A DNA stretch of 4,459 bases, from the IMG/VR virus record IMGVR_UViG_2648501841_000012; one strand, given 5' to 3'. The position numbers were made by a program, and so were the translations under genes. Shown piece by piece: positions 1-4,459 of this stretch. The notes under the pieces were generated by a model. It was given only the letters and a program-made list of their open reading frames with translations. It was not told where the DNA came from and did not search any database. The stretch's first letter is position 1; each line of letters begins with the position of its first letter. Origin of the DNA: a virus (Duplodnaviria > Heunggongvirae > Uroviricota > Caudoviricetes).

Positions 1-252
1 GTTCGCCAGCAGCGGCTGAAATTAAGCCTGTCCGGACGGCTGGCAATAAAAATTATTGCAGAACCACCGGATAAGCGCCGCCGTGACCTGGACAACATTC
101 TGAAAGCACCGCTGGATGCGCTGACGCATGCGGAAGTGCTCATTGATGTCGAGCAGTTGGATGAAATCAATATTGTGCGCGGTCAGCCTGTGCCAGGTGG
201 ACGGCTGGGCGTGAAGATTTACGAAATCAGAGGTGGTAACGATGGCGCGTGA
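1..252 (+). CDS. rusA: RusA-family Holliday junction resolvase, C-terminal part (5' end upstream of window)
   Basis: Frame 1 is open from base 1 to TGA at 250-252. Translation ends ...[65 protein letters not shown], which carries the RusA signature block (RRRDLDN..K...DAL...V.DD.Q) as recalled for DLP12/lambdoid RusA. Absent from the supplied ORF track only because it has no in-window start. Confidence 0.85.
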
Positions 253-613
253 TATCCAGATGGTTCTTGAGCGATGGGGGGCATGGGCAGCAAATAATCA
301 TGAAGATGTAACATGGCCCTCGATAGCTGCTGGTTTTAAAGGATTAATCCCGACTAAAGTGAAATCACGTCCTAAGTGTTCTGATGATGACGCCATGATA
401 ATTTGTGGTTGTATGGCACGATTAAACAAGAATAATCAGTATTTGCACGATTTGTTGGTGGATTATTACGTAGGTGGAATGACATTTATGGCTCTTGCAC
501 GTAAGCATAGATGTTCTGATGGGCTTATTGGTAAAAGGCTTTATAAAGCGGAAGGTATTATTGAAGGAATGCTTATGGCTCTGAATGTCCGGTTAGATAT
601 GGATATGCGGTAG
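242..613 (+). CDS. Q: Late-gene antitermination protein Q (small Q type of Qin/phage 21/933W-like lambdoid phages)
   Basis: Track ORF 233-613. I prefer ATG at 242 ([25 protein letters not shown]...) with GAGGTGG at 229-235 as Shine-Dalgarno over the GTG at 233. The N-terminal sequence is recognisably the small Q antiterminator family (memory-based, not searched). It sits immediately after rusA, the canonical lambdoid order, and its start overlaps the rusA stop by 11 nt. Stop TAG at 611-613. Confidence 0.8.
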
Positions 614-764
614 GGATATATAGTGATGAGGGTTATGTTTTCTGTGTTTATAATTAACATGTTTATTTTTTGATGGTCATGTATTGTGGAAGGTAGATAA
701 AATGTTGCCTGGTGAATTGAAAATATTGATAATCAATCTTCATCATTAAATAAAAGGAGTGCTT

Positions 765-1583
765 ATGTGGATTGTGTTAGTACTGTCACTGTCAACTCTC
801 AGTTGGCATAAGGTAGTGGCTTTTTCATTGTTGACGGTGTCTGTTGTCCTGGCTGTGCTTAATGATATTATTGATTGGTCGGTGTTATTTTTTGTTGCTA
901 CAATCGTTTTTTTTATTATTTTGAAGTTCAACTGGAAATATAACGCCTGGGCTAAATCTATATATGAAGTTGGCATAGTTTTATCAGCCATAGCATTATT
1001 TTTCCATCTATGGCCAGGGTTTCACAATCCTGTAGTGCTAAATTCTGTTACTGTTGGCCCTCAAAGTACTCCCTATACAATGTATTTTAATTTTGATAAA
1101 GCGCTGGTGCCATTTTTGTTAGTCCTGTGTACATCTTCTTTGTTTAAAAAAGAAGTAAAATCAGAAGTGTCTTTGTGGAAGTGGGGGGCTCTGTCGCTCT
1201 CTGTTCCTCTTATCCTGTTTTTGGCTGTTTTTTTTGGTGGATTAAAGCCAGAGATTCATTTTCCTGAGTGGTTGCCAGAGTTTATATTGGCTAATTTGTT
1301 TTTTGTGTCTCTGGCAGAGGAATCATTATTTAGAGGGTATATTCAATCACGGCTATCAGAAGTAACGTCTCCATTGGTTGCATTAATTGTGGCGGCTTTG
1401 TTGTTTGGTTTTTATCACTATTCAGGTGGTGCTTTACTTGTATTATTTGCCACGTTATCTGGTGTTGTGTATGGATTGTCATGGATGTGGAGTGGGCGTT
1501 TGTGGGTTGCCACCCTTTTCCATTTTGGTTTGAATCTGTGTCACTTGTTATTCTTTACCTATCCATTTTTAAAACATAATTGA
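765..1583 (+). CDS. CPBP-family (CAAX protease / Abi, PF02517-like) intramembrane glutamic endopeptidase; polytopic membrane protein
   Basis: Track ORF 759-1583. ATG at 765 with AAGGAG (754-759) 5 nt upstream is preferred over GTG 759. The protein is highly hydrophobic with multiple predicted TM segments. The three CPBP catalytic motifs occur in order: EExxxR (SLAEESLFRG), FxxxH (LFGFYHY), HxxxN (FHFGLNL). The gene is markedly AT-rich compared with rusA and nanS-p. Confidence 0.8.
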   Translation: MWIVLVLSLSTLSWHKVVAFSLLTVSVVLAVLNDIIDWSVLFFVATIVFFIILKFNWKYNAWAKSIYEVGIVLSAIALFFHLWPGFHNPVVLNSVTVGPQSTPYTMYFNFDKALVPFLLVLCTSSLFKKEVKSEVSLWKWGALSLSVPLILFLAVFFGGLKPEIHFPEWLPEFILANLFFVSLAEESLFRGYIQSRLSEVTSPLVALIVAALLFGFYHYSGGALLVLFATLSGVVYGLSWMWSGRLWVATLFHFGLNLCHLLFFTYPFLKHN

Positions 1584-1663
1584 TTTTTTCTATGGTTTTA
1601 AATTTATAAGACTGAAAAATAGCAGGACGTGACATTTGCATGAAAAATATGCACGGCAAAGCA

Positions 1664-1677
1664 TTTACGTACGTAAA
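1664..1677. repeat. Perfect 14-bp palindrome TTTACGTACGTAAA; candidate binding site for a dimeric DNA-binding protein
   Basis: Bases 1664-1677 equal their own reverse complement. An adjacent inverted repeat TGCAT-N7-ATGCA lies at 1638-1654. Both are in the intergenic region about 50-90 nt upstream of the 1725-1746 terminator. Function is not established. Confidence 0.5.
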
Positions 1678-1724
1678 AAATCAGGTATGCTGTTAAGAGT
1701 GGTTATTTCGCCGCATAGCTTGAC

Positions 1725-1746
1725 CCCGCCTCTGAGCGGGTTTTTT
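1725..1746 (+). terminator. Rho-independent terminator
   Basis: All-GC 5-bp stem CCCGC (1725-1729) / GCGGG (1736-1740), 6-nt loop CTCTGA, followed by TTTTTT (1741-1746). It lies 140 nt downstream of the CPBP stop codon. Confidence 0.65.
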
Positions 1747-1869: not shown

Positions 1870-2109
1870 ATGCTGAAACAGCAGGATATGACAGAAACCG
1901 CCAGAGTTGTGTTTGATGAATTAAGCGTCACCGAACCGGCGACGGTCGGGGAGATTGCGCAGAATACGTACCTTTCACGCGAGCGCTGCCAGTTAATACT
2001 GACCCAGCTGGTTATGCGGGTCTGGCAGACTATCAGTTCGGTTGTTACAGACGCCTTCAGTCCTGAAGGCTTTTTTATTTGTGGTAAATGGGCGGCTGGT
2101 GGGTGTTAG
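1870..2109 (+). CDS. Hypothetical small protein (79 aa), possible helix-turn-helix; coding status uncertain
   Basis: Track ORF. GGAAAGGG lies 10 nt upstream of ATG 1870. Segment GEIAQNTYLSRERCQLILTQL looks like a helix-turn-helix recognition region, with weak unverified resemblance to small PapI/FaeA-like regulators. The frame runs straight through a canonical intrinsic terminator at 2053-2080 (hairpin encodes AFSPEG, T-run encodes FFIC), so a full-length translated product is doubtful. Confidence 0.4.
   Translation: MLKQQDMTETARVVFDELSVTEPATVGEIAQNTYLSRERCQLILTQLVMRVWQTISSVVTDAFSPEGFFICGKWAAGGC
2053..2080 (+). terminator. Rho-independent terminator embedded in the 3' end of ORF 1870-2109
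   Basis: 7-bp stem GCCTTCA (2053-2059) / TGAAGGC (2064-2070), 4-nt loop GTCC, followed by TTTTTTATTT (2071-2080). Confidence 0.7.
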
Positions 2110-2203: not shown

Positions 2204-2917
2204 ATGGTTGTTGTCTGTTCAGTTATCATGGTTTGCTCCCCAATTAATATTTTTCTTGAAAAGGATACGTTGTCACTTAAGCCCGGCTCAGTCGTTCTGG
2301 CCACCAAATGCATCAGGGCGCTTTTCCTTATGCATTATGGCAAAGTTAAAATTTTCGATATAAACCATTCCATAGTAAGTCAATATCTGGAAATTCAGCA
2401 TAAGCTGACAAGAACTCATCTGACTGACGTTCCGCTTTATCTGTCACTGGAACCCAACAACCCTGCGTTGGCTGAGGCTTTAATTACCAGCCAGAGATTT
2501 TCCGGAGATACCACGGATATGTTTCTTATGATGGCATGCCTGTCGCTGTTTGAATCAGATGAACGGATATTATTATTTTTAAGTGGATGTTTATCCAGTA
2601 TAAGTGCCAAAGTCAGGGCGATAATTCAGACAGATATATCAGCAAGCTGGACGCTTGGTGCGATTGCGTTACGCCTGCATATGAGTGAGAGTTTGTTAAA
2701 GATAAAACTGAAAAATGAAGGGCACATGTTCAGTCGCTTGTTGCTGGAAGAGCGGATGCGTGTTGCTGTCAATATGTTATGTTCCCGGCATGGATATGGA
2801 CAGGCTGTAGCAGAAAAATGCGGTTATTCAAGCTGGTCCTACTTTATTTCTGTATTTCACCGCTATTATGGCTTCCCGCCAGACAGATATGTATCCAGGC
2901 AAGGGCTTGATTATTGA
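2204..2917 (+). CDS. AraC/XylS-family transcriptional regulator (prophage-borne; possibly PatE/Psr-like)
   Basis: Track ORF. The C-terminal ~100 aa carry the AraC double-HTH signature (WTLGAIALRLHMSESLLKIKLKNEGHMFSRLL ... GYSSWSYFISVFHRYYGFPPDRY). No obvious Shine-Dalgarno, so the start (2204 vs internal ATG 2228) is uncertain. By context it resembles the prophage-encoded AraC-like regulators described in EHEC (PatE, PsrA/PsrB); that is memory, not an alignment. Confidence 0.8.
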   Translation: MVVVCSVIMVCSPINIFLEKDTLSLKPGSVVLATKCIRALFLMHYGKVKIFDINHSIVSQYLEIQHKLTRTHLTDVPLYLSLEPNNPALAEALITSQRFSGDTTDMFLMMACLSLFESDERILLFLSGCLSSISAKVRAIIQTDISASWTLGAIALRLHMSESLLKIKLKNEGHMFSRLLLEERMRVAVNMLCSRHGYGQAVAEKCGYSSWSYFISVFHRYYGFPPDRYVSRQGLDY

Positions 2918-2945: not shown

Positions 2946-3021
2946 AGCCCTTTAGCTCAGTGGTGAGAGCGAGCGACTCATAATCGCCAGGTCGCTGGTT
3001 CAAATCCAGCAAGGGCCACCA
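2946..3021 (+). tRNA. ileZ: tRNA-Ile2 (anticodon CAU, lysidine type, reads AUA); could be auto-annotated as tRNA-Met
   Basis: Hand-folded 76-nt cloverleaf: acceptor AGCCCTT/AAGGGCC (A1:C72 mismatch), D-arm GCTC-AGTGGTGA-GAGC, anticodon arm AGCGA-CTCATAA-TCGCC (anticodon CAT at 2979-2981), T-arm GCTGG-TTCAAAT-CCAGC, discriminator A, encoded CCA. The arms closely match E. coli ileX-type tRNA-Ile2 as recalled. The symbol follows the ileZ-argN-argO naming of Stx-phage tRNAs and is memory-based. Confidence 0.85.
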
Positions 3022-3028
3022 TCACATA

Positions 3029-3105
3029 CCGCCATTAGCTCATCAGGAAAGAGCGCCAGCTTTCGAAGCTGGTTGCGCGGAGTTCGGGTCCCCGAAGGCG
3101 GTCCA
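3029..3105 (+). tRNA. argN: tRNA-Arg (anticodon UCG), atypical T-arm
   Basis: Hand-folded 77 nt: acceptor CCGCCAT/AAGGCGG (one A:A mismatch), D-arm GCTC-ATCAGGAAA-GAGC, anticodon arm CCAGC-TTTCGAA-GCTGG (U33, anticodon TCG at 3063-3065, A37), variable TTGCG, T-arm CGGAG-TTCGGGT-CCCCG (one mismatch, G at position 58 where A is usual), discriminator T, encoded CCA. The symbol is positional (middle gene of the trio) and memory-based. Confidence 0.6.
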
Positions 3106-3118
3106 TTATCTGTATCCT

Positions 3119-3195
3119 GCGTTGTTAGCTCAGCCGGACAGAGCAATTGCCTTCTAAGCAATCGGTCACTGGTTCGAATCCAGTACAACGCGCCA
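3119..3195 (+). tRNA. argO: tRNA-Arg (anticodon UCU, reads AGA/AGG)
   Basis: Hand-folded 77 nt: perfect acceptor GCGTTGT/ACAACGC, D-arm GCTC-AGCCGGACA-GAGC, anticodon arm ATTGC-CTTCTAA-GCAAT (anticodon TCT at 3153-3155), variable CGGTC, T-arm ACTGG-TTCGAAT-CCAGT, discriminator G, encoded CCA. Resembles the argU type. Confidence 0.85.
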
Positions 3196-3234: not shown

Positions 3235-3375
3235 AAATGTCTCACAATTCAGGCGGTTGACTGTTGTCTGGTTTGCGGGGAGTTTGTTAAAAGAAACTGG
3301 CATGGTGAATCCCCCTGTGCGGAGGGGCAATCAGCGAGTAGGTATATGGGATAATCGCGGATTCAGGTGCTGGTA

Positions 3376-3528
3376 NNNNNNNNNNNNNNNNNNNNNNNNN
3401 NNNNNNNNNNNNNNNNNNNNNNNNNNNNNNNNNNNNNNNNNNNNNNNNNNNNNNNNNNNNNNNNNNNNNNNNNNNNNNNNNNNNNNNNNNNNNNNNNNNN
3501 NNNNNNNNNNNNNNNNNNNNNNNNNNNN
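3376..3528. other. Run of 153 N (assembly gap or masked sequence); true length and content unknown
   Basis: Contiguous n characters from 3376 to 3528. All track ORFs with poly-X translations are artefacts of this run. Confidence 0.95.
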
Positions 3529-3736: not shown

Positions 3737-4459
3737 ATGGCATTTAAACACTATGATGTTGTCAGGGCGGCGTCGCCGTCAGACCTTGCGGAAAAGCTGA
3801 CACACAAACTGAAAGAGGGCTGGCAGCCATACGGCGGACCGGTTGCCATTACGCCGTACACACTGATGCAGGCGGTGGCTATTGAAGGAGATCCACAGGT
3901 CGGCCCTTCATCTAAGCCGGACTGGTTCTACGTGGTTGTGCTTGCCGGACAGTCCAACGGCATGGCCTACGGTGAAGGGCTTCCGTTACCGGATTCTTAC
4001 GATGCTCCGGATCCGCGCATTAAACAGCTGGCGCGCCGCAGCACGGTAACTCCGGGTGGAGAGAGTTGTACGTATAACGACATCATTCCGGCCGACCACT
4101 GCCTGCATGATGTGCAGGATATGAGTACGCTGAATCATCCGAAGGCAGACCTGAGCAAAGGGCAGTACGGCTGTGTCGGCCAGGGCTTACATATTGCCAA
4201 AAAACTGCTTCCGTATATCCCGAATAACGCGGGGATCCTGCTGGTACCATGCTGTCGTGGTGGTTCTGCATTCACCCAGGGCGCTGAGGGGACATTCAGT
4301 GCGGACACGGGGGCCAGCCAGGATTCGGCACGCTGGGGTGTGGGTAAACCGTTATATCAGGATCTGATTGCGCGCACTAAAGCTGCATTACAGAAGAACC
4401 CGAAAAATGTGTTGCTGGCGGTGTGCTGGATGCAGGGAGAGTTTGACATGAGCGCCGCC
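3737..4459 (+). CDS. nanS-p: Prophage NanS-p-type sialate O-acetylesterase (N-terminal DUF1737-like domain + SGNH/SASA esterase domain); 3' end beyond window
   Basis: ATG at 3737 preceded by GGGAGG (3727-3732). Frame is open for 241 codons to the window end, so it is absent from the track (no stop). N-terminus MAFKHYDVVRAASPSDLAEKLTHKLKEGWQPYGGPVAITPYTLMQAVAIEG is the DUF1737-type domain; WFYVVVLAGQSNGMAYGEG is the SGNH block I with the GQSN catalytic-serine motif. Homologues lie downstream of stx in Stx phages (e.g. 933W), from memory. Confidence 0.85.
   Translation, partial: MAFKHYDVVRAASPSDLAEKLTHKLKEGWQPYGGPVAITPYTLMQAVAIEGDPQVGPSSKPDWFYVVVLAGQSNGMAYGEGLPLPDSYDAPDPRIKQLARRSTVTPGGESCTYNDIIPADHCLHDVQDMSTLNHPKADLSKGQYGCVGQGLHIAKKLLPYIPNNAGILLVPCCRGGSAFTQGAEGTFSADTGASQDSARWGVGKPLYQDLIARTKAALQKNPKNVLLAVCWMQGEFDMSAA

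Follow-up and report, generated by a model that had tools for sequence, protein, structure and literature searches.

A CPBP-family intramembrane protease gene as probable one-gene cargo between Q and the late promoter region of prophage Sp4 of Escherichia coli O157:H7

In lactic acid bacteria, CPBP ('Abi') proteins of the PlnI, PlnT and SkkI type serve in bacteriocin self-immunity and are encoded in bacteriocin operons, and to our knowledge few functions have been assigned to CPBP proteases in Gram-negative bacteria. Here we analyse a DNA stretch of 4,459 nucleotides from a virus of the class Caudoviricetes (IMG/VR record IMGVR_UViG_2648501841_000012), the whole of which is further called the window, in which a gene for a CPBP-family intramembrane protease lies directly downstream of the antiterminator gene Q. 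For the Q family concerned, the order of Q, the late promoter pR', a pause site, the terminator and the late genes is established (10.1101/651190), and in lysogens pR' is known to fire constitutively, its transcripts ending at tR' (PMC7547250). Our analysis favours, with moderate confidence, an intact CPBP protease whose gene forms a one-gene cargo cassette between Q and pR'-tR' and acts as a conversion gene. The product is most likely a single-gene accessory protease that would be made together with Q, from a promoter of its own, or both.

The open reading frame (ORF) starts at ATG 765, five bases behind the Shine-Dalgarno sequence AAGGAG (754-759), and counts 272 codons up to its TGA stop at 1581-1583; an alternative GTG start at 759 overlaps the Shine-Dalgarno sequence and RefSeq likewise starts the protein at ATG 765. 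An earlier note, made from the letters of the window without database searches, had assigned the protein to the CPBP family and considered it an active protease rather than a relic, all three catalytic motifs appearing intact. A hidden Markov model (HMM) search bears out the family membership: the match to PF02517 (Rce1-like type II CAAX prenyl endopeptidase) has an E-value of 1.4e-19 and 70.6 bits, far above the cut-off of 22.4, and extends over residues 169-258 and profile positions 3-92 of 93. Among 5.8 billion protein clusters, 363 relatives were found, all of them with PF02517. The motifs are also conserved among orthologues, and the two outcomes that the earlier note had named as refuting, a failed HMM match and variable motif residues, have thus both turned out in favour of the family: E185, E186, R190, F214, H218 and H253 are invariant in an alignment of the window protein with 31 relatives of 47-84% identity (32 sequences; Table 1). 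Moreover, the ratio of nonsynonymous to synonymous substitution rates (dN/dS) among prophage alleles amounts to 0.11-0.30, and none of the compared alleles has a break in its 272 codons, which places the gene under purifying selection and confirms that it is no relic.

An AlphaFold2 model of the protein, computed with the 32-sequence alignment (mean predicted local distance difference test score, pLDDT, 94.5; predicted template modelling score, pTM, 0.91) consists of about nine long helices, which coincide with hydrophobic segments, and a beta-hairpin loop at residues 90-107. This loop is part of a subfamily-specific block (residues 81-117) between helices 4 and 5, with strands at 90-95 and 104-107, in which H81, G85, N88, S101, Y107, N109, D111, K112, A113, P116 and F117 are invariant or nearly so. 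Compared with the PDB by Foldseek, the model found SpdC (6u0o_A) and Rce1 (4cad) as its top two matches, both modest (E about 0.05, template modelling (TM) score 0.40-0.45). A profile search of the PDB by sequence gave no match at E up to 1, viral structure libraries yielded only distant CPBP folds (giant viruses, Bacillus phage G), NCBIfam gave only sub-threshold matches to myxosortase and ABC-permease/CPBP core models, and PHROGs gave a full-length match to a family without assigned function. With SpdC in complex with SagB as the best structural match, and with bacterial CPBP scaffolds and regulators of the SpdC and Abx1 kind having been characterised, the protein might be a non-catalytic membrane scaffold or regulator like Staphylococcus aureus SpdC or streptococcal Abx1, modulating a host membrane enzyme or sensor kinase. 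We hold this to be very unlikely, as the residues of the catalytic motifs are invariant or nearly so in the 32 sequences, down to 47% identity, a conservation that argues for retained catalysis.

The CPBP gene is a mobile prophage gene that roughly one complete E. coli genome in ten possesses, O157:H7 for the most part: positions 600-2200 of the window, comprising the gene and its flanks, are 100% identical to E. coli O157:H7 chromosomes, at least 80% of this stretch is carried by about 565 of 5,426 complete E. coli genomes, and about 530 E. coli records have it at an identity of at least 99%. Strain Sakai carries the gene in the lambdoid prophage Sp4 as ECs1085, with the annotation 'phage CAAX amino terminal protease family protein', and the product name in RefSeq is 'CPBP family intramembrane glutamic endopeptidase' (WP_000265265.1). 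The family identity and intact motifs of ECs1085 are supported by our data, but were already annotated, RefSeq and Sakai agreeing, and the finding is modest in that ECs1085 is an annotated family member without assigned role. Literature searches returned no functional study of ECs1085 and no paper that names it, no work combining CPBP, prophage and O157, and nothing relevant on CPBP proteins and phage defence.

The position directly 3' of Q, which the earlier note had also pointed out, recurs in every phage-borne copy with a readable flank. All 40 IMG/VR loci with a close relative (62-100% identity) possess a Q of 79-100% identity about 150 nucleotides upstream, and the same adjacency was seen in several genome and read-assembly contigs beyond these 40 loci. 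The cassette in the window (approximately 614-1663) has a guanine plus cytosine (GC) content of 35-39%, compared to 46-54% at its left flank. Its place is a variable slot, which we surveyed in the loci L081-L138, L007 and L008 next to window positions 614-1663. With a Q of 83-87% identity, the gap from the Q stop to the promoter element described below measures 504, approximately 890, 1074, 1534, approximately 1650, 2362 or 3026 nucleotides. The commonest content is a minus-strand OmpC-like porin gene (PF00267, E 5e-155), as in nmpC of DLP12, and other contents found with such a Q are ORF6N-domain proteins and a 161-amino-acid protein without assigned function. The slot of phiP27 holds a 409-amino-acid T5orf172/MUG113 protein, and that of PhiR40_1 a minus-strand gene without assigned function.

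The right border of the slot is formed by positions 1664-1746, the probable pR'-tR' of a Q21-type prophage. The 16-nucleotide spacer of the probable pR' holds an invariant ACGTACGTAAAAA, and a terminator scan identified CCCGCCTCTGAGCGGG followed by TTTTTT at 1725-1746. Gathered from 122 loci, this promoter-leader-terminator element occurs in 30 distinct versions, 26 of which keep GTTTACG and 29 of which have a -10 hexamer TATnnT at constant spacing. Among the variants of this hexamer (TATGCT, TATCCT, TATGAT, TATTCT, TATACT) positions 1, 2, 3 and 6 are fixed and positions 4 and 5 vary, which is the pattern expected of a sigma-70 -10 element. Among phages with a Q of 79-100% identity, GTTTACG..CGTAAAAA hardly varies, and the palindrome TTTACGTACGTAAA, which could be a Q loading site, does not vary at all. 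Conservation also extends to the leader and terminator. Conservation starts exactly at the -35 hexamer, the sequence 5' of GTTTACG varying with the cargo that is present. In the Stx2a phage Stx2_EH2201 the same leader and terminator start 38 nucleotides after the Q stop and are followed by a TrmB-like gene, a methylase gene, tRNA genes and stx2; since this is the canonical place of pR'-tR', window positions 1664-1746 are read as pR'-tR' too. In phiP27 and EH2201, with a Q of only about 48% identity, the leader is kept and the -35/spacer half differs, as expected if this half carries a Q-specific loading site. No Rfam family covers the leader or terminator, the matches being restricted to tRNAs and weak sub-threshold ones. 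A StxS homologue was considered for the element behind the gene and rejected, the StxS transcript being 258 nucleotides long and belonging to a different Q allele.

With the promoter-like site, leader and terminator lying 3' of the gene, the expectation of the earlier note that the protease would be induced together with the late genes is not borne out in the window. Genes of the late operon lie 3' of pR' and tR', whereas the CPBP gene, judged by these assignments, would be situated at the end of the Q transcription unit, outside the late operon. The Q stop and the ATG of the CPBP gene are 151 nucleotides apart, the spacer has a GC content of 34-36%, and a scan of it detected no terminator-like site after Q, so that the gene should share the transcript of Q, have a promoter of its own, or both. 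A consensus scan indicated a sigma-70-like site, TTGCCT-17-GATAAT, at 705-733 (TTGCCA-17-GATAAT in an allele of 84% identity), which may be the promoter for the CPBP gene. Upon induction, RNA polymerase transcribing Q would thus read on into the CPBP gene, in the lysogen the sigma-70-like site in the AT-rich spacer may also give expression, and CPBP transcripts of either origin would end at tR'. As a separate observation, microarrays of strain EDL933 showed good expression of three genes of prophage CP-933M without assigned function, Z1346-Z1348, in stationary cultures that had not been induced, and levels 2-3 fold higher in an rpoS mutant (PMC2907692). These are possibly the present CPBP gene and its neighbours, and the microarray signals were left out of account here.

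Among the phage-borne relatives, alleles of 62% and 59% identity are located 3' of a Q21-type Q and followed by the TTTACGTACGTAAA element, and the allele of 84% identity is flanked by Q and by a divergent stx1 operon (L002 6820-8833; also L003, L004 and L054) which has 92-93% nucleotide identity to stx1a/1c. These four loci have a broken T-tract (GGGCTTTATATG) in the terminator 3' of the promoter element, and toxin transcription in the phages concerned might depend less on Q as a result. In L140 (4741-6268) an allele of 55% identity stands between a strong terminator (4831-4856) and a holin gene; ahead of that terminator come a lambda-type Q (PF03589) and a promoter-like pair TTGATT/TATGCT. 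There the CPBP gene would be the first late gene of its phage. The idea of a late gene thus fits this branch of the family and is wrong for the window.

These data allow a judgement on the proposal that the CPBP gene is a late gene switched on by Q, whose product serves in abortive infection or exclusion, or in the processing of a partner peptide from a gene just downstream. The constant neighbourhood of Q and the relative next to the lambda-type Q speak for it, as does the fact that in other phages the same slot holds a porin or a T5orf172 protein, types that are often tied to exclusion or defence. Nevertheless we consider it unlikely, because of the probable pR'-tR' 3' of the gene in the window and because neither its defence part nor its partner part found support. 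No PADLOC model matches, so that the gene is not tied to any known defence system, and 'Abi', the old name of the Pfam family, is in itself no evidence of abortive infection. A co-conserved small-peptide gene, which the earlier note had suggested to look for, was not found nearby: the downstream ORF of 41 codons at 1636-1761 was rejected as a partner because it overlaps the promoter and terminator, and the ORF at 1870-2109 because it is a frameshifted copy of a TrmB-like gene which phages without the CPBP gene have as well.

A function in the lytic cycle itself would explain the placement at the boundary between Q and the lysis genes, the protease then acting on phage or host membrane proteins, for instance in lysis timing or in remodelling of the inner membrane. 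The gene adjoins Q genes of two families that are unrelated to each other (PF06530 and PF03589), lies close to holin genes, and with read-through from Q would be expressed at the transition from early to late transcription. On the other hand, the interval from Q to lysis is a general cargo hot spot with unrelated genes, most lambdoid phages with the same Q type do without the gene, and orthologues of about 50% identity are stable chromosomal genes without phage context, which makes such a function quite unlikely in our judgement.

These chromosomal relatives of about 50% identity occur as lone genes in many Enterobacterales. In a survey of contigs with one genome per species 190 relatives were retrieved, and the flanks of the best 80 of these 190 were inspected, which belong to Providencia, Photorhabdus, Xenorhabdus, Proteus, Serratia, Yersinia, Enterobacter, Buttiauxella, Cedecea and other genera. 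Among these 80, modF and/or gpmA/galE stand beside the gene in 47 and a Q gene in none. Providencia, Photorhabdus, Xenorhabdus, Serratia and Yersinia have a lone orthologue at a fixed site between modF and gpmA (or galE) (L144-L222, e.g. L016 and L018). The chromosomal homologues have no neighbour that is constant across genera, so that no partner gene is evident. In a neighbour-joining tree without support values the phage-borne alleles group in a single clade, to which one chromosomal copy (P0010) belongs besides, which is only suggestive of a capture from an Enterobacterales chromosome followed by spread among lambdoid phages. Across dozens of Enterobacterales species the subfamily is thus a stable gene of the chromosome.

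Together, the favoured reading of an accessory protease carried as cargo would work as follows. The CPBP cassette would derive from the lone chromosomal gene family that is widespread in Enterobacterales. The ECs1085 protein would insert in the inner membrane as a single-component endopeptidase, and its site formed by E185, E186, H218, H253 and N257 would cleave a membrane-embedded or membrane-proximal segment of a peptide or protein. As no phage partner gene is linked, the substrate is taken to be supplied by the host or by an invader. The benefit to the carrier is probably one of lysogenic conversion, for example protection against a membrane-active peptide or a superinfecting phage. A more specific version, which we put forward only tentatively, is that a CPBP clade from an Enterobacterales chromosome was recruited to the neighbourhood of Q in lambdoid phages whose Q belongs to either of two unrelated families, those with the divergent stx1 among them, as a single-protein exclusion or immunity factor of the inner membrane which would cleave the ejected or tape-measure protein of an incoming phage or a membrane-active peptide toxin. 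If true, this would be a defence mechanism absent from current catalogues, and would add a one-gene membrane-protease mechanism to the conflict between phage and host as well as provide a handle on the chromosomal family.

Several observations weigh against the favoured reading. The assignment of the probable pR' and tR' comes from homology and consensus, the -35/-10 pair scores 8 out of 12 and was missed by a promoter scanner, and the folding energy of the leader did not differ significantly from that of shuffled sequences (z -1.2). The gene and terminator of the 55%-identical allele stand in an order opposite to that in the window, so that late expression may occur elsewhere in the family. 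PADLOC-DB v2 gave no family at E up to 0.01, and tblastn of deposited phage genomes (INPHARED, 50,697 records) gave no match. Finally, Sp4 is degraded, with insertion sequence (IS) elements and frameshifted terminase, portal and lysozyme genes. This last point, together with the frameshifted TrmB-like neighbour and a frame break in 3 of the 40 IMG/VR copies, would suit a decaying passenger gene without current function in a defective prophage. That is highly improbable in view of the dN/dS values and the 272 intact codons of each compared allele, and of the roughly 530 E. coli records in which gene and flanks are almost identical.

Table 1. Features located in the 4,459-nucleotide window, with positions counted from its first letter.
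Feature	Position	Strand	Basis or remark
RusA gene, 3' end	from position 1		
Q antiterminator gene (Q21/933W-type, 123 amino acids, Sakai ECs1084)	242..613	+	PF06530 E 8.7e-52, RefSeq coding sequence; left edge of cargo slot
Q-CPBP spacer, AT-rich	614..764	+	sigma-70-like site 705-733, Shine-Dalgarno 754-759, without terminator-like site
CPBP (Rce1-like, PF02517) intramembrane glutamic endopeptidase gene, 272 amino acids	765..1583	+	
Subfamily block, residues 81-117 (HLxPGFHN...VGPxSxPFTMYFNFDKALVPF)	1005..1115	+	
Motif 1 EExxxR = E185-E186-S-L-F-R190	1317..1334	+	invariant (32-sequence alignment)
Motif 2 FxxxH = F214-G-F-Y-H218	1404..1418	+	invariant (32-sequence alignment)
Motif 3 HxxxN = H253-F-G-L-N257	1521..1535	+	H253 invariant; N257 at least 90%, one D
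3' flank of cargo cassette	1584..1663	+	kept only among close CPBP alleles; ends exactly at -35 hexamer
Probable pR'	1664..1691	+	-35 TTTACG 1664-1669, 16-nucleotide spacer, -10 TATGCT 1686-1691; homology and consensus
Leader (GTTAAGAGTGGTTA...) and intrinsic terminator, probable tR'	1692..1746	+	stem-loop 1725-1740, T-tract 1741-1746; terminator scan
TrmB-like gene, frameshifted per RefSeq	1870-2109		phrog_331
AraC-family regulator	2204-2917		
Three tRNA genes	2946-3195		
Run of N (163)	3366-3528		
DUF1737 and SASA (sialate O-acetylesterase-like) protein, start	3737-4459		1,851 nucleotides in full prophage

The genes further downstream in the window (Table 1) gave some additional observations. 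Intact copies of the TrmB-like gene, of about 65 amino acids, are found 3' of the terminator in phiP27, PhiR40_1, SfV and Stx2a phages. The best NCBIfam matches of the AraC-family regulator are YdeO and GadX, both below the cut-off. The name psrA (prophage-encoded type III secretion regulator) has been given to Sakai ECs1087 (PMC13502914), whereas a 2024 review places PsrA at z1789 in OI-50, so that the naming may differ across strains. The tRNA genes show the ileZ-argN-argO arrangement of Stx phages, the first of them being called Met (CAT) by ARAGORN versus Ile in RefSeq and Sakai. The run of N counts 163 nucleotides compared to only 100 in the counterpart of O157:H7 strain PV15-279 (L001 14778-14877) and lies where the stx genes sit in Stx phages; a sub-threshold Rfam match to the small RNA STnc100 (29.8 bits versus 47) extends into it.

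Compared with described CPBP proteins, the window protein shares with Rce1 (4cad) PF02517, the motifs EExxxR, FxxxH and HxxxN and the multi-helix membrane fold, but at only about 15% identity and a TM-score of 0.40, and it differs by four extra N-terminal helices and by the subfamily-specific loop 81-117. We know of no prenylated CAAX substrates in bacteria, and the substrate of ECs1085 must therefore differ from that of Rce1. The best structural match is SpdC of S. aureus (LyrA), a CPBP-fold scaffold of the glucosaminidase SagB (6u0o; Foldseek probability 0.99, TM-score 0.45), and several homologues bear the NCBI name 'lysostaphin resistance A-like'. The two proteins are nonetheless only 14% identical. 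In the family of the window protein, which is Gram-negative, all catalytic residues are retained and no partner gene is linked. To the myxosortase and CTERM-sorting proteases (MrtP, MrtC, MrtS, MrtJ and others) there are weak matches in the shared catalytic core, with 19-46 bits versus cut-offs of 75-435 (best 46 versus 435), and unlike in CTERM-sorting systems no CTERM-tagged substrate genes were seen near the CPBP gene. With the PlnI, PlnT and SkkI type the protein has in common the Pfam family, the intact motifs and the state of a single membrane protein thought to protect its carrier. It differs from them in that no bacteriocin or peptide gene adjoins, either in the prophage or in the chromosomal homologues; the neighbours of the CPBP gene are Q, the promoter and terminator, the TrmB-like pseudogene and the AraC regulator, which places it outside a bacteriocin cluster.

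Of the marks of a moron, a prophage cargo gene with expression of its own, the CPBP gene shows presence or absence among related phages and a low GC content; its putative promoter at 705-733 is a match to the consensus only, and in place of a private terminator it would use the probable tR'. What is new here, and only mildly so, is the exact delimitation of the cargo slot between Q and the probable pR' in Q21-type phages, together with the repeated occurrence of the CPBP gene in it. A map of this slot is important for predictions of the time at which genes close to Q are expressed, also in stx phages. The porin gene nmpC/lc of DLP12 and PA-2 occupies exactly the same slot between Q and the promoter (Q 83-87% identical) but on the opposite strand, unlike the CPBP gene. 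Conversely, stx and tRNA genes are situated 3' of the terminator, inside the late operon, whereas the CPBP gene is situated 5' of the promoter.

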